64,000 nucleotides of DNA, taken from the IMG/VR virus record IMGVR_UViG_3300020156_000022, positions 1 to 64,000 of that record, one strand, 5' to 3'. A program made the translations under genes and the position numbers. The notes beneath the pieces were generated by a model. The model saw only the letters and a list, made by a program, of their open reading frames with translations, had not been told where the DNA came from and did not search any database. The DNA comes from a virus. This document shows, in pieces, positions 6,491-63,943 of this stretch. Position 1 is the stretch's first letter, and each line of letters begins with the position of its first letter.

Positions 6491-6930
6491 CCCGAACTTT
6501 CTCGGGGATGTTGCTAGTCTAGTACATCATCTTGCGAGTGTCAATACTTGTCTGGACGCTTACGCTTAGCCTTCTCAGGTGCAGCATTGATAGCATGATT
6601 TTCCTTGCGCTTCAAATCTGCTTTTAGCTTTGCTGCCTTACGTTCCGCAATACGATTTTCTACTCGTTTAGCTTTATCGCTCATTACTTGCTAACTTCCT
6701 TAAGAAGGCTGGTAAGGAAAGACAAAGCAAACGTAATAACTAGTGGGAAGAAAACAATCTTAGCGGAAGCGGTAAAATCAATTAGGGGAACGAAGTCCCA
6801 CCAATGCGTATGCGCCATATTGATGAAAGCCATAAGTGAAAGGGCGCTCCCGCCCCAAATAAGAGCAAAGACAAAAATGAAGCCAATTGCTAACATAAGG
6901 AATCAATTCTCAATTCTGTAGTAAATTATA

Positions 6931-10076: not shown

Positions 10077-10451
10077 TTACTCGAAGGGGCTGTCAAGTAG
10101 GTCTGTCAACCTAACAGGATCAGGCTCAGGAGCTAACCCATAGCGTACACGCTTAGCATCTCGCTCGCAAGCCCTACACCTACGATGCAGATACCCGTCC
10201 TGTTCTTCCAGGCGAACATTATCCCCTGAATACGGGTGATTCCTAGGGCAGACAGGCTTTAGGTTGTTGCTGCTACGTAATAATTGCTCTAATGATTTAA
10301 CAGGAGGCTTTTTATGTTCATAAGAAACTCCCATTCTTTTATTCTGCGTATACCTTTTTTGAGCTTCGGCATGGCAAGGGCGACAATATGAGAATTTGCC
10401 TTTAACATATCTATCAAAGGCACCACACTGCTTGCAAGGTTCATCTCTCAT
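10077..10451 (-). CDS. Zn-finger protein (HNH-associated CxxGH-type motif)
   Basis: CKQC, CRPC, CPRNHPYSGDN...RRCRAC. Confidence 0.65.
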   Translation of the reverse strand: MRDEPCKQCGAFDRYVKGKFSYCRPCHAEAQKRYTQNKRMGVSYEHKKPPVKSLEQLLRSSNNLKPVCPRNHPYSGDNVRLEEQDGYLHRRCRACERDAKRVRYGLAPEPDPVRLTDLLDSPFE

Positions 10452-13819: not shown

Positions 13820-14689
13820 TCATACAGACACAGATCCTGTTAGTTTTGGGTGATGAAAATAGCCATGAAGACTGAAATCATCCAGCTCATAATCAAAAAT
13901 GCCCTGGCCTCGCTCGCGCTTAATAAGGACAGGAAGATTATTGTAGGCAATTCTGGTTAGTTGCTGCTTGATCTGATCAACATGGTTAGTATAGATGTGT
14001 ACATTAGTTAGATCGTGAATAAGTACTCCAGGCATATATCCAGACTGATCTGCGAATATATGTAGCAGCAATGCATACTCGGCAATATTATATGGCACGC
14101 CAAGGAATACGTCACATGAACGCTGATGCATTTTCATGTTCAGAGTGTTCCTGGAGAAATCAACATAAAGCTCAAAAGCCCAATGGCAAGGAGGCAAAGC
14201 CATTTCGTTTAGTTGATTGGGATTCCAAGCACTGACTACCATTCTACGAGAATATGGATTAGTCTTCAGTTCGTTAAGAACCCATTCAATTTGATCAACA
14301 CCCTTATAATTTAGATCTAGGCCGTTAAACCCAATATTGAAAGGATTATAAGGGTACTGCCCATTGAAATTACGCCATTGAAAACCATATACAGGTCCAA
14401 GATCTCCAGATTCATTTTTAGCCCACTTACGCCAAATACCAAAGCCCATATCAGCTAATTCATTAGCATCAGTAGAACCTTTGAGCATCCAAAGAATTTC
14501 TGCTTTAATATGCTCAAACCCGGCAGTCATGTCTTTAGTTGTCAACAAAGGAAAACCCTCACTCAGATCAAACTTCATCTGATGCGAAAAAATAGATAAT
14601 GTTCCTGTACCTGTCCTATCTTCTCTCAATTCCCCCTCTGTCAAAATCTTTTTACAAAGATTCAAATATTGGTTGTCAGCGTTATTCAT
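13820..14689 (-). CDS. thyA: thymidylate synthase
   Basis: DRTGTGT, LGPVYGFQWR, SRR, MALPPCH, QRSCDVFLGVPYNIAEY, HIYTNH. Confidence 0.97.
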   Translation of the reverse strand: MNNADNQYLNLCKKILTEGELREDRTGTGTLSIFSHQMKFDLSEGFPLLTTKDMTAGFEHIKAEILWMLKGSTDANELADMGFGIWRKWAKNESGDLGPVYGFQWRNFNGQYPYNPFNIGFNGLDLNYKGVDQIEWVLNELKTNPYSRRMVVSAWNPNQLNEMALPPCHWAFELYVDFSRNTLNMKMHQRSCDVFLGVPYNIAEYALLLHIFADQSGYMPGVLIHDLTNVHIYTNHVDQIKQQLTRIAYNNLPVLIKRERGQGIFDYELDDFSLHGYFHHPKLTGSVSV

Positions 14690-15153
14690 TTATCTCCTTT
14701 ACTCGAATACCTAGACCGTTGCCATACACCTTTGGCTCCTTCAGGAAGGCATCTCTAGCTGCCCTGAGTTTATCGTACAATCCCGACGGGCGAGGTACGG
14801 TGCCTGAGTCTAGAAGAGTACATAATTCCACATAATTTAAATCAACACTTACTATTTCTTCCATGCCTTACAATCCTCGCTCCAATACTCCATTAGTAAC
14901 AGGACTCAGCTCAAGAATAGGATCAAAGCTTTCACGCTCAATATACTTTTCACGAAGTTTCTTATATATATAGTAAGGGACTCTCACTTCAAAGTACAAG
15001 ACCTCCTGAGGATTATCCCAGTATTGCATAGCCATGACAGCCGTAACTTCATATCGTTGATAATTGAGTCCAGCTAATCCAGAAAAACTTCTCATCCAAG
15101 CTAGCAGTTTTCCTAGTTCTTCTGGAGTATAACACTTAACTATCTTGGCTTTC

Positions 15154-15309
15154 TTAAACAAGCCCATATCGTTTCCTTAACCTATCAGCAATCTGATCCT
15201 TGGTTGGCTCTTGCCACTTATGCCAGCCTGTTTCCTTAGTCCAGATCTGACCGTAGTTCTTTACGTGCCAATCAAGATTGCATGCTCCACATACTGTGCT
15301 ATGACTCAT
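15154..15309 (-). CDS. 51 aa CxxC protein, paralogue of 15572-15736
   Basis: MSHSTVCGAC...TGWHKWQEP; starts just after a repeat copy. Confidence 0.6.
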   Translation of the reverse strand: MSHSTVCGACNLDWHVKNYGQIWTKETGWHKWQEPTKDQIADRLRKRYGLV

Positions 15310-15571
15310 GTCTTGTCCAATCCAAGTGTAGGTAAGTATATATTCCTAAGGGATAGGGTCTATGCTAGGTCTTACACCAGTACAAAAATTGATGTGATCC
15401 TCAGATCCCCAAAAGTAACATTCAGCTAACCACTCTGCTACAGCAGCAACATCATTGAGCCCAAGCCTATCTTTAATTTTCTCAAATTCGTCTTCTGTCA
15501 AAGAAACTTCAAACTGTATCCTCATTCTACTCCAATCCAAGTGTAGGTAAGTATATATTCCTAGCGTAGGG

Positions 15572-15736
15572 CTACCATGGTGATTTACGTCTAGATCTTT
15601 TCTGGCTTTTGCGTTGCTCAACTAAACGCTCTGATGGTTTTTTCCAGTCATGCCAAGCACCGTTAAAGAATATTTTCTCTGTGTGGTAGCAATTGCAGAT
15701 AGCACAATCCAGCTCATATACATGACCTCTTGGCAT
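15572..15736 (-). CDS. 54 aa CxxC protein
   Basis: MPRGHVYELDCAIC...GAWHDWKKP; AGAAAGGA RBS. Confidence 0.6.
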   Translation of the reverse strand: MPRGHVYELDCAICNCYHTEKIFFNGAWHDWKKPSERLVEQRKSQKRSRRKSPW

Positions 15737-15820
15737 GGTGATCCTTTCTTGTTTGAAGTGTAGGTAAGTATATATTCCTAGGTAGAGCCAGCCTTACTGA
15801 ATACTCTACCTAGATCAAAA

Positions 15821-16066
15821 TCAGATGTCGAATTCCCCATCCTTGGCACCATCGATAAATGCAATCCATTCATCGCGAGTGAAGGTCAAGATTGGACCAC
15901 TACCATTATCCTTGGTGTCTCGCACTAGAACCTGATCAGGATTCTTCATGACTTCAACACAGTTACCTGATGGATTGCTCCTGGTGCTCTTAGCCCAGAC
16001 TGCATTAACCTCAACGCAGTTGTTTCCACCATTACCATTACTGCGACTTGACTTCTTCCAACTCAT
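15821..16066 (-). CDS. DUF397 (BldB-like) protein with duplicated N-terminal motif
   Basis: WKKSSRS...NCVEV twice, then VLVRDTKD...LTFTRDEWIAFIDGAKDGEFD. Confidence 0.9.
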   Translation of the reverse strand: MSWKKSSRSNGNGGNNCVEVNAVWAKSTRSNPSGNCVEVMKNPDQVLVRDTKDNGSGPILTFTRDEWIAFIDGAKDGEFDI

Positions 16067-16554
16067 TTTCTATCTCTCTTTCTCTAGTCTGGAATCCTTG
16101 TGATTCCAAGTGTAGGTAAGTATATATTCCTAGCTAGGGTAGGTACCTGATATAGCTTACAACCTTCACAGGTTTCGTTACCTCAGCCAAGGCTTCATCG
16201 AAACTGTCCTTGACGAACATCAGATCATATCTTCTGGTAAAGCCATTCCAGAAATATACCAGCCATTTATCCGGCTTACCTTTTCTAATTTTGTAGCGAG
16301 GTCTGTGCCGTTTCATTAGAATTTCCATCTTGTATTTTCGTCGATGACAGCTTGAACACGCCTGAAAGTTACATATCCTTGTTCGTCTACTTGCAGTTTT
16401 CCGTCAATCAGTTTAGTACCTAAGTAACTTACAGATTGATAGCTTTCTAGATCCTCAATTACTAAAAAATTATCGTGACAGGAAAGTGTACTCCAATGCC
16501 CAGCATAGCCCTTTCCATTTAGAAATCCTTGAGCATAATCTGCTTGCATTCTCA

Positions 16555-16644
16555 TTAGAATTCCTCTACCTTAGTTATTCCGTTAACCAGCTTGAAGCGA
16601 TACCTACGATCTGCGAATTCACTGAAAGCATCAGAATGGGTTAC
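16555..16644 (-). pseudogene. displaced original 3' end of the Rad50 C-terminal gene
   Basis: Reads VTHSDAFSEFADRRYRFKLVNGITKVEEF*, matching the C-terminus of 17502-18167; no start codon. Confidence 0.85.
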
Positions 16645-16796
16645 TTCTCTAATCTCTTATGAAACTTCTCATGTAAGGCTACATCAATCACATAAGTTCC
16701 GCAGTCCAAGCAGGCTTGTGCGTTGGGATGTGATATATCTCCATAGCTAAGCTTTCTATATCTGTATTCAGTAATTTTAGTTTCTTTATCTGTCAT
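16641..16796 (-). CDS. 51 aa C2H2-like Zn-finger protein
   Basis: CLDC...LHEKFH; overlaps the HNH stop (ATGA). Confidence 0.6.
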   Translation of the reverse strand: MTDKETKITEYRYRKLSYGDISHPNAQACLDCGTYVIDVALHEKFHKRLEK

Positions 16797-17521
16797 TTAG
16801 AGATCATCCTTTTATACACTTTAAGCATTTCCCAGACTGTAGGAATACTATCTTTTTTTGAACAATTACAACTAGGACATAGCACTTGAGCATTAGCATA
16901 CATATGCAGTCCATTACGGGCAAGAGGCCAAATATGATCTAGATGCCATTGATCTAAATAATTTAGGGCTATCCTGCATCTTTGGCAAACTCCAGCATCT
17001 CTCTCCCATAATACGTCCTTCTTGATAGTTTCAACGAACAACCCTTTTTTCTTTAGTTTTCTTGCTGTATTGGACGCTCGTCTCCATGCTTTACCGGCGT
17101 CAGATTTCTCCCATGCCTGGTATCTCATCTTAGCCAGTTCTGGATTTTCCAGTCTATACTTGCGTTGTCGTAGAGCTGCTGATTTTCTATATTCCGGCGT
17201 TTTGTGCTTAGCTAAAATAATTTCTTTGTTTGTGTTGTAGTATTCTTTAGAATACTTTTTGATGGTGTCTGGGTGTCTTTCTCTATATCTCTGAGATTTT
17301 GCCGTACTAACATCTTTGTTAGATTTAGCATATTTAGTAGTAGCTAATCTTGTAGCTTCTTTACCTTTCGGAGTTGCTCGATATTCTCTAAATCTCCGAG
17401 CAACACAAGCTTTGCATGTAGTATTGTATCCTGTCTTATGTCTTTTAGATTTTCCAAAGTTAGATAATGGCTGAGGCATTGCCTCAGCACACTCAGGATT
17501 CTTACATTTTTGTGTTTCCAT
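16793..17521 (-). CDS. free-standing HNH homing endonuclease
   Basis: CQRC...HLDHIWPLARNGLH..NAQVLCPSCNCSK; basic N-terminal CxxC region. Confidence 0.9.
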   Translation of the reverse strand: METQKCKNPECAEAMPQPLSNFGKSKRHKTGYNTTCKACVARRFREYRATPKGKEATRLATTKYAKSNKDVSTAKSQRYRERHPDTIKKYSKEYYNTNKEIILAKHKTPEYRKSAALRQRKYRLENPELAKMRYQAWEKSDAGKAWRRASNTARKLKKKGLFVETIKKDVLWERDAGVCQRCRIALNYLDQWHLDHIWPLARNGLHMYANAQVLCPSCNCSKKDSIPTVWEMLKVYKRMISK

Positions 17522-18167
17522 GAATCTCTTCCACCTTCGTTACACCATTTACGAGTTTAAACCTATATGCTCGATCGGCGAATTCGGTGTAAGCATCACT
17601 ATGTGTGACTAATATTACGGAAACTCGTGTCTTGTCTACTAGCTCTTTGATGAATTCAGCCAGAGGTCTTTCGTATTCTGCTGAGACATGAGAGAATGAT
17701 TCGTCTAGCACTAGAAGAGGTTCCTTGGAATCCTTACTTAGGAGCAGGACAACCAATCTCAGCAGGAAGCCTACCACGGCTGCCAATCCTCCGCCACGAG
17801 AGTCCATAACGGAGGTCTCTACAAGAGTGCCGTTAAGGCCCCTAGATTGAATTGTGAATTTAACTTCTGGCGTCTTGCCCCTCTGGGTCTGGGTAAGGTG
17901 AAAAGAGATGTCCTCGCCGAAAATAGTAGTCAATCCTCTGGTTACTAATTCTTCAATCTGCTGTTGTGCGTCTGCTTGTCGTTGCTCACCAATAGAAGCC
18001 AGGGTGATTGCTACTTTGTTGTACAGATCTACATCTTGAGAGGCTAATTCAATTTCCTCAGTAAGTTGTTTTCCTGTAGTAGCAATCACCCTGGCTTCTG
18101 CGATTCGGCGATCAATGATTTTTCGAGCAGATTGAACTCTCTTACTTAATTCTGTTAGATTGTCCAA
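17502..18167 (-). CDS. Rad50/SbcC-like ATPase, C-terminal half
   Basis: Coiled coil, signature-like SRGGG, Walker B LLVLDE, H-loop LVTH; no Walker A. Confidence 0.85.
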   Translation of the reverse strand: MDNLTELSKRVQSARKIIDRRIAEARVIATTGKQLTEEIELASQDVDLYNKVAITLASIGEQRQADAQQQIEELVTRGLTTIFGEDISFHLTQTQRGKTPEVKFTIQSRGLNGTLVETSVMDSRGGGLAAVVGFLLRLVVLLLSKDSKEPLLVLDESFSHVSAEYERPLAEFIKELVDKTRVSVILVTHSDAYTEFADRAYRFKLVNGVTKVEEIHGNTKM

Positions 18168-19604: not shown

Positions 19605-20239
19605 AGGGATTTAGCTTCTCCTAAATTAACACGTCTCTTCGCGTGTATCTACAATATCACCAGCATCAAGCATCTCTTGAAAAGTTGCAATCATAGATTC
19701 TTGGTTTTTTGATGTAAGATTATCAAAATTAAGTTCAGGGATGGTTACCAAATTCTGTTTTTCTCGGTAGATTTCCCAATGTCGCCGAGCCAGACCTTCA
19801 GCACTATCTTCGATCATCATATTCCTCACCCTAACAGAAAAAGGCAGGCCCGTCAAGACCTGCCTTTTGTGGATCATATCAGTAGGCTAACCCCACCAGG
19901 ACCTACCAGCAATCCAATAATGATCAACGCAACTCCCCATACAATATCACGTTGAACAATTTTGACGATTCCGAATACTACTAGAATTACCGCTATCAGC
20001 CACAATAGAAATTCCATAATTAGCTCCCAATGTCTGTTTTGAACTAATTACTATTATCGGCCTCAGAGATAAACTTAATATACTCGACTTGAGCCCAGGT
20101 AAGCAATAGGGCTAGCAAAATACTAGGAATAAGAAATACTAGATTACCATCTACAGCTATCACAATAGCTATGAACCAACTAAAGCCCATAGATGCCATT
20201 AGCAATTTTTCGAACCTATTAACCGTCGTTCTCTCCATG

Positions 20240-37933: not shown

Positions 37934-39553
37934 TCAGATTCGACCTGCTGAGAAGTCAGCGATCACTGACGGAGCGTTGGTGTCGAAACCTGCAACATTC
38001 AGGGTGCCGTTCACATCGTTAGGGTCGCCTACAGTAAACGGAGTAGCTGCCGCACCTACAACTACCAGCTTGGCGTCAATACCCATCTTCTGACGATAAT
38101 CCTTCAATGCACGCTCAGGCTTAATACGTCCAGCCCAAGTTTCGTTGTCGGTGTAAATCTGGAAGGTGTCAACTTCAATCTTGTTCTGCAATGCCCAAAC
38201 CATAGGCTGAGCAATATCAGTACCACCAAATGCCTGACCCTGCAACTTGCGGTTAACAGTAGCCAGATCCATCTTAGCAGTAATACCAAGATCACGGAAG
38301 GAAGTTGAGAAGCCCATGATCTGATACCAAGGCTCAACACGAGCAGTAACCATAGCCATAGCAGCAGTCACCTGTGCACAGCTTAGATCAATACCCAGTG
38401 CCGCAGAACCCATAGAACCAGAAACATCCAGAGCAAGCAAGGTTCGCTTGTTAGCAGGAGTAATGGACTTGAATGCAGCGTGGAATCCAGCATCCAAAGC
38501 ATCAGCAATTACAGGATTAGTTACCCAGTCCTTCTTACGAGTAATTGCATACCAACCATAAGACTCATTACGCTGCATCTGGCCCTCAGTATGAGTAACC
38601 AGAGCTAGAAGATACTGGATTGGGTGAAGACGAGTCTTCGCAATCATGTCAGAATCAACTAGAGCATTAGCAACTGCACGGGTAAACACCATATCGTTGA
38701 ATGCGCCAATACGAGAAAGGCGAGTAATCTGACGAACAAGTGCCTGACCCTTAAGCTGACCGTTAGCGAAAAGCTGCTTCCAAACCTCAGGCTCCTTAAG
38801 GAACTGAGTAGGAATAGTCTCCCAAGGAAGGTTAGTGAAACGCCCCAGAATATCGATAGCCTCAACAGAAGAAGAAGCAAGCTGCATCTTCTGAAAACCA
38901 TCGATAATGTCAGAATCGCCGTCTAGATCAATAAAGACAGGCTTACCAAGGATAAAATTACCTACACGTTGATCAACGCCAGTAGGGTGAGACAGGCGCA
39001 TAAGGTCACGCATAGTCCAACCATCACGCTGACGGTATTTAACAGCCTGGTACGCAAGCTGGTCAGCAGTCTTAGACTCAAACCACTTAGAGATTGCACG
39101 ACGCTTTGCACGACCCCAACCTCCAAGACCTTCGATGAAGGCAGCAAGCTGGTAAACGTGAGTAGCGATACGAGCAACCCTAGGAGCAGCCTCAACTACG
39201 GCCTGCTTAATACCCTGAACAGCCTCAGGCTCAGAAAGCATAAGAGCTAGGACGAAAATAGCAGCCTCGTTACGGTAGGCACGCCCCTTGTCGGACACGT
39301 CAATAACAGTAGCGAGAACAGTCTTAGGGTCCTTAGCGATCATCTTACGGATGAAGTCGACGTTCTGCTTAGTAAGATCCTTCTCACCCACGTAGTAGGT
39401 GCCCTTATCGGTACCAAGAATAAGGAAACGCTCAAGGCGCTGAATGTCAGATACTTCGAAAACGTAACCACCAGCGTTGTTCTTCACCTCATCGGAACGA
39501 GACTTCTCACGCTGAGTAGGTACAGCAGTAGAAAAATTCTTTAGTGCAGACAT
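37934..39553 (-). CDS. rsr: Ro60/Rsr TROVE-vWA RNA-binding protein
   Basis: NNAGGYVF, RFLILG..GTYY, GWGRAKRRA, KYRQRDGW..RDL.RLSHP, RLHP, vWA MIDAS LALDVSGSM, GGTD, YTDNETW; start MSALKN. Confidence 0.96.
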   Translation of the reverse strand: MSALKNFSTAVPTQREKSRSDEVKNNAGGYVFEVSDIQRLERFLILGTDKGTYYVGEKDLTKQNVDFIRKMIAKDPKTVLATVIDVSDKGRAYRNEAAIFVLALMLSEPEAVQGIKQAVVEAAPRVARIATHVYQLAAFIEGLGGWGRAKRRAISKWFESKTADQLAYQAVKYRQRDGWTMRDLMRLSHPTGVDQRVGNFILGKPVFIDLDGDSDIIDGFQKMQLASSSVEAIDILGRFTNLPWETIPTQFLKEPEVWKQLFANGQLKGQALVRQITRLSRIGAFNDMVFTRAVANALVDSDMIAKTRLHPIQYLLALVTHTEGQMQRNESYGWYAITRKKDWVTNPVIADALDAGFHAAFKSITPANKRTLLALDVSGSMGSAALGIDLSCAQVTAAMAMVTARVEPWYQIMGFSTSFRDLGITAKMDLATVNRKLQGQAFGGTDIAQPMVWALQNKIEVDTFQIYTDNETWAGRIKPERALKDYRQKMGIDAKLVVVGAAATPFTVGDPNDVNGTLNVAGFDTNAPSVIADFSAGRI

Positions 39554-39575
39554 TTGGCTTCTAGCCTTTCTGTTA

Positions 39576-39693
39576 GAACGAATATGTATGGATGATTGGG
39601 GTGCCCTACCATTTTGGGCGTCTGGTTGATCTGCGTACAGCCTACCAGACAGGGATCGAACCTGCAAGATAACCAATCAAGATCGACTCGTTC
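39576..39693 (-). ncRNA. Y RNA 1 (YrlA-like, permuted tRNA-like domain)
   Basis: GAACGA-GUCGA..UGAUUGG-UUAUC, T-arm GCAGG-UUCGAUC-CCUGU, CUGGU/ACCAG, D-arm GCCC..UGGUA-GGGC, CCAAUCA..CAUAU-UCGUUC. Confidence 0.85.
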
Positions 39694-39702
39694 AGAGTCA
39701 AG

Positions 39703-39830
39703 TGTTTCTGACAGGGTATGAACCTGCACATTTGTACTTCTTCAAAGATACTCCCCATAGCTAAGCTATAAGTTTCACTTCCGTACAAACCACCGAGGTT
39801 TCTCGGCTGCTATACTTTGCATACAGAAAC
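39703..39830 (-). ncRNA. enlarged tRNA-like spacer
   Basis: GUUUCUG/CAGAAAC-A acceptor, D-like arm, extra CCGAG/CUCGG hairpin, branched UUUGUAC/GUACAAA arm, T-arm. Confidence 0.65.
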
Positions 39831-39833
39831 AAG

Positions 39834-39957
39834 TGCGGCGAAAAAAGGATTCGAACCTCTTCAGTGAGATGAGCTTAGCACGTCTAGTCCATGTTCGTCA
39901 ACATGCTAAAAACGTGCAGCCTATGACACTCATCCTAGTCTCATAAACCAAAGCCGC
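39834..39957 (-). ncRNA. tRNA-like spacer with long rod insert
   Basis: GCGGC/GCCGC-A, GAGG-UUCGAAU-CCUU, nested GAUGAG/CUCAUC, GCACGU/ACGUGC, CAUGUU/AACAUG. Confidence 0.55.
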
Positions 39958-39963
39958 AAGTAA

Positions 39964-40123
39964 TTGATGAATATGGGAGCGTAAACGAATAATATACAGA
40001 CGCTCTGCCATTGAGCTATACCCCGTTCATCTATATAGCGTTGTTTGCGCTAGTCGGGGCAGGAGGATTCGAACACTCCAACATTCTGTTTCCTCAGATA
40101 ATCGTATTACTTCGACTCATCAA
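39964..40123 (-). ncRNA. Y RNA 2 (YrlA-like)
   Basis: UUGAUGA-GUCGA..ACGA-UUAUC, T-loop GUUCGAAUC, CCCCG/CGGGG, D-arm GCUC-AAUGGCA-GAGC, CAUAU-UCAUCAA. Confidence 0.85.
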
Positions 40124-40125
40124 AG

Positions 40126-40182
40126 TGTCCCCGGTTGGATTCGAACCAAACTTACACTACCAGGCGCTAACTGGCAAGGGAC
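40126..40182 (-). ncRNA. minimal D-armless tRNA-like spacer
   Basis: GUCCC/GGGAC-A, GCCAG/CUGGU hairpin, UUGG-UUCGAAU-CCAA. Confidence 0.6.
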
Positions 40183-40189
40183 TATAATT

Positions 40190-40357
40190 TTACTTTCTAG
40201 GCTTAGGCCAGCGATCAATTACTACCCTAAGATTTTCACATTCCTTCATTGCAGCATCAAAAGCTTTAGTATCTTTAGCTTCTCTCGCTTTTGCTAACTT
40301 TTCTCGTGCTTGCTGTAAAGCCTCTTGAGCTTCTCGTTTACTAGAATAGCTAGCCAA
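40190..40357 (-). CDS. 55 aa basic helical protein inside the Y-RNA array
   Basis: GAGG RBS, TTG start, MASYSSKREAQEALQQAREKLAKAR... Confidence 0.6.
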   Translation of the reverse strand: MASYSSKREAQEALQQAREKLAKAREAKDTKAFDAAMKECENLRVVIDRWPKPRK

Positions 40358-54551: not shown

Positions 54552-55037
54552 TTACTTCCTGTTGTAAAGATCAGTCCACTCGGGCACTCGTGGTGCAAAC
54601 AACAAAGGCATCCTAGCTTCGTCAGGTGTTCTATCCCTCTTTTTGTTATTACATGGAGAGCATGCAGCAACAGTATTCTTCCAGGAATTCTTACCTCCCT
54701 TAGAACGAGGAATTACGTGATCAATAGTGTTCGCCCTGCCGTTACAGAAAGCACAAACATACTTATCACGTCTCAATACGCCAGATTTAGACCATTTAGG
54801 CTGCCTTTGATACCTCCAAGTAGTAACAACATACCTTAGAAGTCTGACAGAAATAGGACGTATGAAAACACCTATTAACTCATCTGCTGCCTCATGTACT
54901 TCAGCCACACCGCGAACGATCATTCTAATCGCATGATTTAGAGATACGGTGTGAAGTACTTGAAGGTCTGCGTTTAATACTGTTACATTTCCACTCATCA
55001 CCGCACTCCTTTCAAATAAATCGCGGTGTAAAATCAT
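54552..55037 (-). CDS. HNH endonuclease (actinobacterial type)
   Basis: VLNA, VLRRD, CAFC, TIDHVIPRSKGG.NSWKNTVAAC..CN..K. Confidence 0.9.
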   Translation of the reverse strand: MILHRDLFERSAVMSGNVTVLNADLQVLHTVSLNHAIRMIVRGVAEVHEAADELIGVFIRPISVRLLRYVVTTWRYQRQPKWSKSGVLRRDKYVCAFCNGRANTIDHVIPRSKGGKNSWKNTVAACSPCNNKKRDRTPDEARMPLLFAPRVPEWTDLYNRK

Positions 55038-60895: not shown

Positions 60896-63484
60896 CTAGA
60901 ACGCAATATCTGCCGTCAGCCTTTGGAATTGCTCAGGAGTCATGCCAGAAAATTCATACTGCACTATGGCCCCTCCTAAAGCCATAGAAATTATGTTTCT
61001 ATGCTTCTCAGCATCTAGCTTAGTATCAGTCTGTGGCATCAACAATTCCCCCTCCGGAGTCTGGAGAAGAACATTCCTGGAGCCGCCTGAGAGCTTGTCT
61101 AGCAATTTATTGAAATTAACCCACTGTTCTTCTGTAGGCATGTGATCAATAATTACAACAACTCTTTCAGCTTGCTGCTTAGGACCGCAACCCTCAGGGT
61201 CTTCTAGATAAGCTTTTTCTTTTAGCTTCTTATCAATTTCTGCTGTAGAAGTGAACTTCTCTGCCTCAGATCCAAGTGTAGGTAAGTATATATTCCTAGG
61301 AGTATGGGCTACAGTCTCATCTACTTCTTCAGGAGTTGGAGGTTCCATTACAGTACCTTCAGAGATTCTGTTTGCTGGTTCATCTTCAAGTGTAGGTAAG
61401 TATATATCTCCTGGAGTAAGTACAGGACCATCTTCTACTTGGATAGCTCCATCTTCAAGAAGCTTAATCTCCTTAACTGATCCCCAACGCTTTCCTACAT
61501 GCCAATCAGCTTTCATCATAGGCCACCCCGGTACTGGAAAGATTACCGCAGGTTGAAGAACACGAATAACGTCAGCTGGATTAAGGCTGCGATGCACATA
61601 AAACTCCAGTGCATCGTGGACATTCATGAACAGCCTTACTTTATCTTTCCAACCCATTTTACGAATAGCCTTACGAGCACGAACCATTCCAATTCTGACG
61701 TAATCACCAGTAGCTCCACCTTGTACAGGATAGTTGAAGCAAGCTCTTTCTCCGCCTTCACGAATCCAACGGCGAGAATCGGTAAGTTCCCAAATAGGAA
61801 TCATACGACCAAATTTGGTAACTACATGTCCGTGCTGATAGCCGAATTCAACCTGCTTTTCGGTAAATCGCTTAAGCTTAGGAAAAGCAGCAAAATATTG
61901 ATTGAACAGATCTTCTGCCTCTTCTCTGGAGACATTAAGTCTTTTACCCAAAGCAATAGGAGTCATACCGAACAAAAGGCCGAAACCAATAGTCTTAGCC
62001 TTGGATCGATATTCTTTTGTTACTTGATCTTTAGATAGCTTGAACATCATCATAGCTACCTTGGTGTGAACATCCTCATCGTTTTCGAATGCTTCGATGA
62101 GTGCTGTCTCATTTGCCAATCCTGCGGCTGCTCGATATTCAGCCTGAGACAGGTCAAATCCTAGAATATAGTAATCATCAGGTGCGATTACCGCGTCACG
62201 GAAATTCAATTTATAGCTGGTGCCGTCTGCCAACTTGTAGTAATAACTCAGCGGAGTCTTACCATCATCATCTTTCAGGTTTACTGATGGCTGATTTTGC
62301 TGGTTAGGATTAGCGGAACTGAATCGAGCAGTGCGCACATAACTTTGGTTCAATGAAGGATGCACCATACCATCCGGAGCATATCCGTAATCCTTGGCAT
62401 ATTTATCCAAGAAAGATGTAGTCAGTCGCTTCATGTTCTTATAGTTGGAAATCTTCTTAACTACAGGATTCTTTTCTGCCAAAATATCCAGAGCCATCTT
62501 CCCAGTAGACATTTTTTTGTCTTCCTTGGCGGCACCCTTAGTACTTGTGGTATAGACATTTACCGTCAGACCCAGACGCTCGAACAGGATCTCAGATAGC
62601 TGTTTAGGGCTCCCCAGATTAATGTTGAGCTTAGTTCCTGGCATGCCTAGTAGTTCGGCTAGCTCAGACTGAATTTCGTCATTTAATTTGGCTGTAAACT
62701 CCTTGGCTCGATCAGACGCCTCCTGCATGAAAAACCAGTCATAGCGGATGCCGCAGTCCTCCATATCACAAATGACATAGACAACTTCCATATCCACTTT
62801 ATAAACTAGTTGATCTTTCACTTTAGGGTACTGATCAAGATGTAAAGCTAAACACCATAGGGCGTCTTCACATGCATACGTTACTACCTTTGAACTGAGA
62901 TCTAGTACATTAAATCGAAAAGCCTTTTTCTTCTTCTCAGTAAGGTGCTCGAACAGTTCTTCGAACTTAATCATCTTGTGTCCGAATTTGTTCAGTACCA
63001 GATCCTTTAGACCAAAATCCTGAAACTCTCGGGTGATATAAGCTTCTACCTGAGTATCTGACCTGGCAGGAAAATACCCGCTAGATTCTCGAACGTCTTT
63101 TCCAAAAATAGGATGATCTGATAATATCTCACGAAAAAACCGTGCCATGCGTCTAAGTTCGAAACCTAAATTGTGCGCAACGATCAATCCTGATTGGAAT
63201 GACTTCCAGAGAATTTCTGCGATAGCTAGATGATCAGTAAGATTTTCAGCAAAGTCATGAGCCATAGGAACATACCTTGCCCAATTAAGAGAATTGGTAA
63301 AACTGAAACCTACTAACAGATTTGTTTCTAGCTTTAGTGATCCTCGATCATCATCTTCTCCATGATACCCTGTTTCAATATCAAAGCCGATAGGCAGACC
63401 CTTATCGATCATGCCTGCCCAGAATTTTTCTAATTCCTCTACAGATCTTACAATGTCGTAGTTTTTAGTTACTACAGTTGACAT
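60896..63484 (-). CDS. polA: family A DNA polymerase with 3'-5' exonuclease and C-terminal extension
   Basis: FDIET, AHN, YACEDA; RFSSANPNQQN, DLSQAEYR, RSKAKTIGFGLLFG, NYPVQG, VHDAL. Confidence 0.95.
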   Translation of the reverse strand: MSTVVTKNYDIVRSVEELEKFWAGMIDKGLPIGFDIETGYHGEDDDRGSLKLETNLLVGFSFTNSLNWARYVPMAHDFAENLTDHLAIAEILWKSFQSGLIVAHNLGFELRRMARFFREILSDHPIFGKDVRESSGYFPARSDTQVEAYITREFQDFGLKDLVLNKFGHKMIKFEELFEHLTEKKKKAFRFNVLDLSSKVVTYACEDALWCLALHLDQYPKVKDQLVYKVDMEVVYVICDMEDCGIRYDWFFMQEASDRAKEFTAKLNDEIQSELAELLGMPGTKLNINLGSPKQLSEILFERLGLTVNVYTTSTKGAAKEDKKMSTGKMALDILAEKNPVVKKISNYKNMKRLTTSFLDKYAKDYGYAPDGMVHPSLNQSYVRTARFSSANPNQQNQPSVNLKDDDGKTPLSYYYKLADGTSYKLNFRDAVIAPDDYYILGFDLSQAEYRAAAGLANETALIEAFENDEDVHTKVAMMMFKLSKDQVTKEYRSKAKTIGFGLLFGMTPIALGKRLNVSREEAEDLFNQYFAAFPKLKRFTEKQVEFGYQHGHVVTKFGRMIPIWELTDSRRWIREGGERACFNYPVQGGATGDYVRIGMVRARKAIRKMGWKDKVRLFMNVHDALEFYVHRSLNPADVIRVLQPAVIFPVPGWPMMKADWHVGKRWGSVKEIKLLEDGAIQVEDGPVLTPGDIYLPTLEDEPANRISEGTVMEPPTPEEVDETVAHTPRNIYLPTLGSEAEKFTSTAEIDKKLKEKAYLEDPEGCGPKQQAERVVVIIDHMPTEEQWVNFNKLLDKLSGGSRNVLLQTPEGELLMPQTDTKLDAEKHRNIISMALGGAIVQYEFSGMTPEQFQRLTADIAF
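61270..61407. repeat. two further copies of the 15.3-16.1 kb repeat inside the polymerase ORF
   Basis: 61270-61299 identical over 30 nt to 15535-15564; 61388-61407 matches 20 nt of the core. Confidence 0.95.
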
Positions 63485-63514: not shown

Positions 63515-63943
63515 CTATATCCCATATGATTTTTCATCTTCTTTAGATTTTTTCGTATGGCAAGTACTACAAAGCATCTGTAAATTATCTGGGTGGTGCT
63601 TGCAACTAAAACGAGACTTATCTCCGCGACGAGGAATAATATGATCGCAGGTCATCTCGTCTCCACGTAGTCTTACTATGTTCTCACACAGGCCACAGTC
63701 AGCGCAATGGCTATGGCGAGGTTCACCATGACTACGTATACAGTTACATTTGCGCCTAGATAACTTAACAGCTAACTGTCTAGCTAAAAAATAACGGTGG
63801 TGCAGACGCCATGCCTCAAGACATGATCCACTGCACCACCTTTTTTGTTCAGGTTTAAGCTGTCCAGAACACCAGCGACAATCACTATCCTTGCCAGACC
63901 AGCTAGATAGCGTACAATGAAGAGGATTTACTGTCATAGGCAA
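63515..63943 (-). CDS. HNH endonuclease
   Basis: CRWC, CADC, DHIIPRRG...NLQMLCSTCHTKKS. Confidence 0.88.
   Translation of the reverse strand: MPMTVNPLHCTLSSWSGKDSDCRWCSGQLKPEQKRWCSGSCLEAWRLHHRYFLARQLAVKLSRRKCNCIRSHGEPRHSHCADCGLCENIVRLRGDEMTCDHIIPRRGDKSRFSCKHHPDNLQMLCSTCHTKKSKEDEKSYGI

Follow-up and report, generated by a model that had tools for sequence, protein, structure and literature searches.

An invariant repeated element at the starts of small accessory genes marks sites of cassette exchange in uncultured siphoviruses and is a putative phage-specific promoter

INTRODUCTION

Mobile regulatory cassettes have been described in T4-type myoviruses as promoter-early stem-loop (PeSL) elements (Arbiol et al. 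2010, PMC2839356; Comeau et al. 2014, PMC4122927). PeSLs are repeated intergenic elements that reach from the stop codon of the upstream gene to the Shine-Dalgarno (SD) sequence and start codon of the next one. Most of them precede small ORFans in a hyperplastic region that conserved core genes flank, a few copies stand in core modules, the plastic DNA polymerase locus included, and close relatives show indels and replacements by homologous recombination at the elements. The formation of excised mini-circles is a further trait of these cassettes. The same traits recur in an element that we have analyzed in a 64,000-nucleotide (nt) stretch of viral DNA, hereafter the window. The window comprises bases 1-64000 of the IMG/VR record IMGVR_UViG_3300020156_000022 (G000; linear, 104,982 bp, ~77% complete), and four copies of the element stand on its minus strand at 15324-16132. 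The system works like the PeSL cassettes but fails their definition. PeSLs have a sigma-70 consensus promoter (-35, -10, and AT-rich upstream region) and a stable G/C stem-loop terminator, and this element has neither. It has instead a 16-nt invariant core that is not of the sigma-70 kind, with no degenerate copies; it belongs to another phage lineage, siphoviruses with actinophage-type genes, and its copies are also read in frame within two proteins. The idea of a mobile regulatory cassette, known from T4-type phages of Gram-negative hosts, is thus extended to an uncultured clade of large siphoviruses, with a signal that differs from the T4-type one and is far stricter.

Two repeat families of mycobacteriophages also come close. 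The start-associated sequences (SAS and ESAS) of Cluster K are, according to Pope et al. (2011, PMC3203893), 13 bp long, located 3-7 bp from the start codon, contain the SD, and occur in 11-19 copies. Like the element studied here, the SAS is described there as an asymmetric actinophage repeat in one orientation, just upstream of the starts of non-structural genes; in some cases it takes in the stop codon of the gene before, and the genome of the host lacks it. Our element differs by its 16-nt core, which lies upstream of the SD and 12-25 nt from the start codon (21 of 32 array copies), by copies that also lie inside open reading frames (ORFs), and by the recombination breakpoints that it marks; we have found no sequence similarity between the motif and the SAS consensus of that source. 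The stoperators of Cluster A (PMC9283540, PMC6550527, PMC3203893) are sites of 13 bp to which a temperate phage's immunity repressor binds. They too are many, asymmetric, genome-wide, oriented with transcription, and near gene ends. The stretch conserved in our element is longer, and neither a repressor nor an integrase was found in the protein scans of G000 and of its complete relative G002.

Two further systems are instructive. The promoters of T7-type single-subunit RNA polymerases are contiguous, near-invariant sequences of ~20 nt. The element resembles them in its contiguous, near-invariant sequence without a degenerate tail, in the purines at its 3' boundary, and in the short leaders to the SD; it differs in that a cognate polymerase gene was not detected in G000 or in the complete G002. 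The recombination sites of integrons are imperfect inverted repeats that fold as hairpins, from which the array is set apart because the motif is not hairpin-forming and no integrase was found in the G000 and G002 scans. A full-text literature search returned no occurrence of the motif, of a 14-nt part of it, or of its reverse complement, and the motif appears not to be in the searched literature.

RESULTS AND DISCUSSION

The element is an all-or-none family of near-identical copies

An earlier note, made from the letters of the window, had pointed to a repeat that occurs four times on the minus strand, with one small ORF in each interval. The four are exact copies of the 25-mer TAGGAATATATACTTACCTACACTT (15324-15348, 15539-15563, 15756-15780, and 16108-16132) with start-to-start spacings of 215, 217, and 352 nt. 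The intervals are occupied as had been described, by genes for a DUF397 protein, a 54-amino-acid (aa) CxxC protein, and a 59-aa protein, and a gene for a 51-aa CxxC protein follows. A fifth exact copy, absent from the list in that note, lies at 61274-61298 of the same strand. These five copies in the window compare with a chance expectation of 0.00 (mean of 100 shuffles). A sixth (61388-61407) keeps a 20-nt core and has a variant 5' part (GGAGATAT), and the seventh lies beyond the window, at record position 75676. All seven copies of the 20-nt core in the record are on the minus, coding strand, and a reversed-pattern control gave none.

The motif is the top repeated 12-mer both in G000 and in G002. 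We have gathered 60 distinct copies from related phage contigs and metagenome loci. The 16-mer ATACTTACCTACACTT is invariant in 58 of them, and the remaining two carry one mismatch each. This family is all or none: G000 has seven exact 16-mers, none with one or two mismatches, and counts at chance level from three mismatches up. In cellular genomes (596 Gb), the 16-mer had 108 matches against ~280 expected (our own arithmetic, 2 x 596 Gb with equal base use assumed). All were single and none had the GGRA flank, so they were dropped as a clue to a host or to prophages.

The whole element spans ~30-40 nt and consists of a C/T-rich run, a stop triplet, GGRAM, 2-3 nt, the invariant 16-mer, and SRA, often followed by GAG; 3' of SRA there is usually an SD and then the start codon of the next gene. 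The copies had been placed at or shortly after a stop codon, and the relation has proved sharper than that, the stop triplet being part of the element. TAG, TGA, or TAA stands at the 5' edge of 44 of the 59 anchorable copies. The stop of the upstream ORF itself falls 6-8 nt before the 16-mer in 15 of the 32 array copies. About one third would be expected if ORFs run to the only stop-bearing frame, and we have read the embedded stop as compaction rather than as a special coupling device. Where the start codon follows the 16-mer at 12-25 nt, GGAG, GAGG, or AGGAGG lies between the two. The 5' half is constant inside a genome and varies among genomes (GGAATAT, GGGACAG, GGAACTAG, GGAAGAAC). Besides G000, three relatives found through exact cores in viral contigs were taken whole, namely G001, G002 (135,654 bp, with a terminal repeat and complete), and G003. 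In these four, 24 of 25 copies are oriented with the next gene, and five further arrays added 23 copies, one of them inverted.

In the window, with flanks and all on the minus strand, copy 1 (16105..16134) is made of the C-rich/stop region, GGAATAT, the 16-mer, and GGA. It heads the DUF397 gene (81 aa, 15821-16066; Pfam PF04149, E 1.4e-28), with 41 nt from the 16-mer to the ATG and the stop of an upstream 64-aa ORF 10 nt before the 16-mer. Copy 2 (15753..15782) heads the gene of the 54-aa CxxC protein (15572-15736; no Pfam match, orthologues in relatives) at 19 nt from its ATG. Copy 3 (15536..15565) lies 13 nt from the ATG of the 59-aa gene (15346-15525; an ORF call with no relatives among the eight arrays examined below), for which the 3' flank GGATTGGAG supplies the SD; a longer, 91-aa ORF call that reads through this copy is probably an artefact. 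The TAG of copy 4 (15321..15350) is the stop codon of the 59-aa gene, with a gap of 6 nt to the 16-mer and 14 nt more to the ATG of the gene of the 51-aa CxxC protein (15154-15309; orthologues in relatives). The two CxxC proteins had been taken for paralogues. They do match by BLASTP, but weakly in this genome (E 9e-4 over 16 residues), and each has clear orthologues of its own in relatives (families F19 and F22).

The absence of a TTGACA promoter and of a hairpin, as the earlier note had it, was confirmed. Sigma-70-like sites in 14800-16700 number 5 against 5.2 expected, and one of the four array copies overlaps a weak, 9-of-12 match whose -35 falls in the non-conserved flank. The region upstream of the core is C/T-rich, not AT-rich. 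Six motif regions fold no better than their shuffles (z -0.35 to +2.22), and the 16-mer core is G-free and unstructured. A small C-run/G-run inverted repeat at the 5' end has a mean of -2.6 kcal/mol against -2.4 for permuted arms (4 of 500 permutations were as low); the effect is weak and nothing has been built on it.

Copies that are read through in frame sit in two proteins, the DNA polymerase and an early protein that we call gpX. The element is stop-free in two frames and has an optional stop in the third. Two tandem copies lie in the DNA polymerase linker in five phage contigs (G000, G001, G002, L023, and L030), 327-516 nt from the next start in the three contigs measured. In the window these are copy 5 (61271..61300, minus strand), which is read as IYLPTL in the linker ahead of a C-terminal extension, and, 114 nt upstream in the same ORF, copy 6 (61385..61412, minus strand), which is the one with the variant 5' part. 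The polymerase itself (60896-63484, minus strand) has 862 aa, and residue 634 is the last one of its Pfam DNA_pol_A match. Past the family A domain, the extension runs for ~190 aa and begins at the tandem copies, read (I/R/T)YLPTL; its protein sequence is conserved in G002, where the ORF as a whole is 73% identical.

Inverted copies were seen directly after the ATPase gene that borders the arrays in two of eight arrays (L186, of G003, at 6665 and L187 at 6584). That of G003 stands back to back with the first forward copy, 91 nt apart. The 5' half of the inverted copies matches the type of their own genome. Such a copy could drive antisense transcription, act as a substrate for inversion, or give a long hairpin in the sense transcript.

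Single-gene cassettes are exchanged at the copies

We have located the array loci of relatives by the conserved gene of an SMC/SbcC-like ATPase (F5; 17502-18167, minus strand; PHROG 15167, E 3e-36), the upstream backbone anchor. The downstream anchor is the thymidylate synthase gene thyA (F12; 13820-14689, minus strand; PHROG 160, E 1.5e-105). All eight loci with an ATPase identity of 69% or more to that of the window (the window counted) have 3-7 copies between ATPase and thyA; among the eight, the ATPase is 63-97% identical. Three distant relatives (ATPase at 52-58% identity; G+C-rich by their repeat sequences) have no 16-mer at up to two mismatches and no comparable repeat. The scan of the genome and its relatives for varying gene content between copies, which the earlier note had suggested, showed that content and order differ in all eight loci. 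The backbone is fixed, and between the anchors shared small-gene families (F9, F10, F16 with DUF397, F19 and F22 with CxxC, F27, F36, F37, F40, and F42) occur in differing combinations and permuted order. F16, for instance, is found in five of the eight arrays, at varying positions. A copy heads nearly every small gene in the arrays, with one or two small genes per copy.

The loci L183 and L184 allow the exchange to be followed base by base. Their backbone proteins are 97-99% identical, yet one whole unit and two diverged alleles differ between them, and the nucleotide identity profile changes state at the copies. Along the locus it is mostly 95-100%, falls to 35-55% up to a copy, is ~75% up to the next copy, and rises to 93-100%; a 351-nt indel, 72-90%, a copy, and again mostly 95-100% follow. 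The indel is exactly one copy-to-copy unit. The lone L183 copy matches one L184 copy in its upstream flank (44/45) and the next L184 copy in its downstream flank (39/45), while the reciprocal comparisons gave 13/45 and 17/45, that is, unrelated flanks. A second single-unit indel ([M]J4) was found at the divergent junction described below, where G003 differs from three other junctions. At PeSLs, such indels and replacements are likewise reported between close relatives.

The comparison of these loci shows, at the level of sequence, that the identical copies are crossover points where single-gene cassettes get deleted, inserted, replaced by diverged alleles, and reordered. It gives base-level evidence of the gain, loss, and reordering of accessory genes by phage genomes in which no dedicated recombinase takes part. 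The route of exchange is likely to be homologous recombination at short identical repeats, not an integron-type system, because no integrase was found and the phage has recombination proteins of its own. G000 encodes a UvsX/RecA-like recombinase, Mre11/SbcD-like and SbcC-like proteins, and endonuclease VII. We have found no integrase or site-specific recombinase among 106 G000 proteins (PHROG), 35 G002-specific proteins, and 14 further G002 proteins (Pfam), and the sole "integration and excision" match among the 35 is a secondary AAA+ match of the clamp-loader protein. Hence, of the recombination site for cassette gain and loss that had been proposed, the varying content and order and the breakpoints and indel at the copies bear out the gain and loss, and no integrase has been found to go with a dedicated site.

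The element as a candidate promoter

The explanation that we prefer, and to which we would give slightly better than an even chance, is a clade-specific intercistronic expression signal that combines promoter function with recombination crossover points. We infer that its primary function is most likely that of a phage-specific promoter. Each copy would start transcription of the gene behind it, and host RNA polymerase together with a phage factor would use the copy as a phage-specific promoter. The 16-mer would then lie just upstream of the start point, with the purine-containing SRA at or near +1, and single-gene cassettes would move by homologous recombination between identical copies.

This proposal leans first on the divergent junctions. 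In G002 and in three more contigs, one or two genes, each preceded by a copy, make up a short leftward unit that runs divergently from the rightward genes and has a copy at its head. The blocks conserved between G002 and G003 upstream of the first gene of this unit are a hairpin with compensatory changes, a mirrored TTGACA-17/18-TAAGNT rightward promoter, the motif, and the leader with the ATG; no other leftward promoter is conserved there between the two. Because a promoter must exist at this place and no other is conserved, the motif is the only promoter candidate at the junction. The earlier note had offered an operator or a phage-specific promoter, and this position at the head of a divergent unit makes such a role plausible. 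Two more observations point the same way. The ORF-internal copies of the DNA polymerase are 327-516 nt from the next start, and therefore a DNA-level signal fits better than a translational one. The 5' half, uniform within genomes and different between them, is as expected of a site that co-evolves with a phage-encoded reader. The 16-nt invariant core offers a tangible entry point to what may be a new class of promoters.

The closest isolated phage, Microbacterium phage Magritte (OR553905.1, 133 kb), also repeats conserved promoter-plus-leader cassettes ahead of small genes. At 87-118 kb of Magritte (L177/L178), a ~90-nt unit precedes many small genes and consists of a sigma-70-like cTTGTGC-GTTAGCGCGT...-AATAAT, a leader hairpin, and CCCACGAAGGGAAT just before the ATG. 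Judged from its sequence, this unit is an independent repeated promoter-leader cassette in the same phage group.

Candidate readers of the motif

A sigma factor would be the obvious partner of a phage promoter, and the phage sigma gene lies at record 71622-72341. It has ~110 close homologues; a single-sequence sigma query of the viral contigs gave no match. Promoters of sigma-28 (FliA/WhiG) have a -10 element close to GCCGATAA and TAAA upstream; GCCGATAW is what we take to be the -10 consensus. In G000, -10 elements of this type (GCCGATAA/GCCGATTA) are confined to the coding strand (0 on plus versus 8 on minus for GCCGATAW). By sequence match, the candidates of the window are at 20054, 36554, 49905, and 54533 (minus strand), and those beyond it (L002/L003) at record 97664, 89259, and 89750 (coding strand). 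The site upstream of the major capsid gene is kept in G000, G002, and G003 despite diverged flanks. Magritte has a homologue of the sigma factor and no copy of the motif, and repeats GYCGATATCCCTG before late genes. The phage sigma more probably serves separate late promoters of the GCCGATAA type; owing to these sites and to Magritte we have lowered it as a reader of the motif. An ECF-like geometry (GGAAY, 17-18 nt, TCAAA/TGGA) was also considered and rejected, since it would turn the invariant part into the spacer, and ECF sigma factors were not detected.

The other candidate is gpX, of 306-333 aa, found by ORF calling and homologue search (L013:218-1138, which is G002 100218-101138; homologues P0121-P0178). 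Its gene comes first after a TTGACA-17-TAAGCT promoter of the sigma-70 type and a terminator-like hairpin that shows compensatory changes. A motif copy inside its ORF is read through in three of four junctions and encodes a linker (KEYILTYT); the internal copy is degenerate in G003 and absent in L199. The structure model of gpX is confident and has a winged-helix domain at residues ~90-192 (pLDDT 81). Its structural matches (VIA) are generic winged-helix ones at Z 5.4-7.2 (Z 6-7 for Fur, CAP, and ORC), a level that the tool calls common, and Foldseek with the model gave no match at E <= 0.001. Across three records, gpX is present in the motif-bearing G002 and G003 and absent from the motif-less Magritte; the equivalent region lies off the 77%-complete G000 contig. 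Searches with the diverged variants P0170 and P0176 gave no match, and many contigs of 130-139 kb carry homologues of both sigma and gpX. We regard gpX as a candidate reader only.

Weighing the alternatives

Several points tell against a promoter with recombination crossovers. The element is unlike a sigma-70 promoter and no known sigma class fits it, and 16 invariant contiguous bases are unusual for a sigma-dependent promoter. One sigma is detectable per genome, of the FliA/WhiG type. By inspection, the motif consensus agrees with the sigma-28 -10 at 4 of 8 positions at best, and perfect GCCGATAA sites compete for the phage sigma. As for a phage RNA polymerase, PF00940 was found in none of four records, the complete G002 included, in a scan that is weak alone because its control matched nowhere, and the PHROG and Pfam scans of G000 and G002 proteins gave none either. 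The close spacing to SD and start codon and the G-free, unstructured core suit a signal at the mRNA level equally well. A 45-aa ORF call on the minus strand upstream of the G002 head copy would, if it is a real gene, shift the start of the unit further upstream. The RNA data come down to one run (X1, share 0.05) with two 151-nt contigs on thyA and none on the array, which is uninformative on transcript starts and ends. The recombination part rests on one near-identical pair and on gene-order comparisons, and recombination could be a by-product of any repeated sequence.

In a bolder form of our explanation, which we consider possible, if not probable, the element is the promoter of a phage system of transcription specificity that has escaped recognition and, at the same time, a recombination linker under selection. 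An early winged-helix protein such as gpX, not sigma, would then direct host polymerase to the 16-nt site. Co-infecting phages would exchange whole genes and also swap domains in frame (the DNA polymerase tail, the gpX tail), the latter being allowed because the stop is absent in two frames and optional in the third. If true, the system would amount to an integrase-free viral integron, and the clade-wide invariance would stem from the need to stay both readable and recombination-compatible.

An mRNA-level signal is a similarly tentative option. The G-free 16-mer would stand in the leader, 5-8 nt upstream of the SD, as a translational enhancer, a standby site, a signal for re-initiation past the embedded stop, or a site where a phage RNA-binding protein binds or cleaves; a comparable role has been proposed for the Cluster K SAS. 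The position of the start codon (12-25 nt past the 16-mer and beyond the SD in 21 of 32 array copies), the embedded upstream stop in 15 of 32, the G-free core in regions less structured than their shuffles (z up to +2.22), and the orientation of copies with the gene would all suit this idea. So would the precedent of the SAS, which according to PMC3203893 is similarly asymmetric, one-way, placed just before starts, sometimes provided with the upstream stop, and not found in the host. However, the DNA polymerase ORF of five contigs has tandem copies, with the next start 327-516 nt off in the three measured, and the early gene gpX has internal copies as well. A separate promoter would still have to be assumed for the copy that heads the divergent unit, where none is conserved. 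Sixteen invariant bases are also more than a generic enhancer needs, and we know of no complementarity of the 16-mer to ribosomal RNA.

We regard a stoperator-type operator or roadblock as rather unlikely. Here an asymmetric site bound by a phage protein, for example gpX, would shut off or pause transcription at gene boundaries. The sites do lack symmetry, occur in many copies, point along with transcription, and are found at stop codons. As for gpX, its place directly behind a sigma-70-type promoter, the copy in its own ORF in three of four junctions, its winged-helix domain, and its presence in motif-bearing G002 and G003 but not in motif-less Magritte would suit such a binding protein. Yet its winged-helix match is generic at a common Z level, and its phyletic pattern consists of three records. 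No integrase or recognisable immunity repressor was found in the G000 and G002 scans, which left many proteins without an assigned function. Stoperators, at 13 bp (PMC3203893), are half as long as the stretch conserved here, and the head-of-unit copy would still be in need of a promoter.

A dedicated site-specific recombination site, integron-like and served by an unrecognised recombinase or nuclease, is very unlikely. It could draw on the variable cassette content and order with exact copy-to-copy indels, on the inverted copy right after the ATPase gene in two arrays, and on several HNH endonucleases, one of them beside the array in G000 and L182. The scans of G000 and of the complete G002, though, gave neither a transposase nor a recombinase of the tyrosine or serine type, and the site does not form a hairpin. 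The crossover product is as expected from plain homologous recombination between two 16-30-nt identities, and copies also lie within essential genes, following gene direction.

The origin iterons that the earlier note had listed, or another replication-polar signal, are not supported and seem scarcely credible. The sites are directly repeated and identical, and one lies within the gene of an early two-domain DNA-binding protein (in some phages origins lie inside initiator genes). But the copies are scattered across the genome at distances of 57-400 nt or of tens of kilobases, and any two neighbors enclose a gene. A stop codon, an SD, and a start codon go with every copy, which also follows the direction of the next gene on both strands. 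Inside gpX the copy is degenerate in G003, and L199 lacks it.

The phage and its clade

The coding strand of G000 is the minus strand for all substantial genes (ORF analysis of the window and record). PHROG and Pfam scans of its 106 proteins identified siphovirus genes (tape measure, Dit, portal, major head), a large replication and nucleotide-metabolism gene set, Lsr2-like, DUF397, and Ro60/TROVE proteins, and one sigma factor. The longest ORFs are those of the tape measure, a tail protein, and the DNA polymerase. Compared with G000, Magritte has a DNA polymerase of 38% identity, a sigma-like gp47 of 33% identity, and the same gene order. An actinobacterial host is likely for the G000 phage, and the phage looks lytic, as integrase and recognisable immunity repressor were not found in the G000 and G002 scans.

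The motif-bearing phages form one clade of roughly 105-140-kb siphoviruses with actinophage-type genes (Lsr2, DUF397), a group of uncultured soil-type phages. In metagenomes, the motif could be used as a marker to trace this clade's pool of accessory genes; should the host be found, it could also be a portable expression and recombination signal.

Other features of the window

Next after the F22 gene comes a 99-aa gene of family F10 (14868-15167, minus strand). On the other side, between the ATPase gene and the array, stands an HNH endonuclease gene (F30; 16793-17521, minus strand), which is found at that place in G000 and L182 only.

Rfam identified 22 tRNA genes at 2128-51915, all on the minus (coding) strand and most of them at 40.8-51.9 kb, which accounts for ORF-poor stretches of the window; at the gathering threshold, nothing else was found in the whole window. 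A Ro60/TROVE plus vWA protein is encoded at 37934-39676 (minus strand; Pfam E 4e-59 and 2e-34), and its Magritte counterpart is annotated as "Ro-like RNA binding protein." The ORF-free gap of ~500 nt beside this gene (39677-40190) could hold a Y-RNA-like gene, and Rfam at its gathering threshold gave none there. Finally, the genome has at least four scattered genes for HNH endonucleases and one for an endonuclease VII-like paralogue, at 10077-10451, 16793-17521, 54552-55037, and 63515-63943 of the window (minus strand) and at 95666-96433 of the record.

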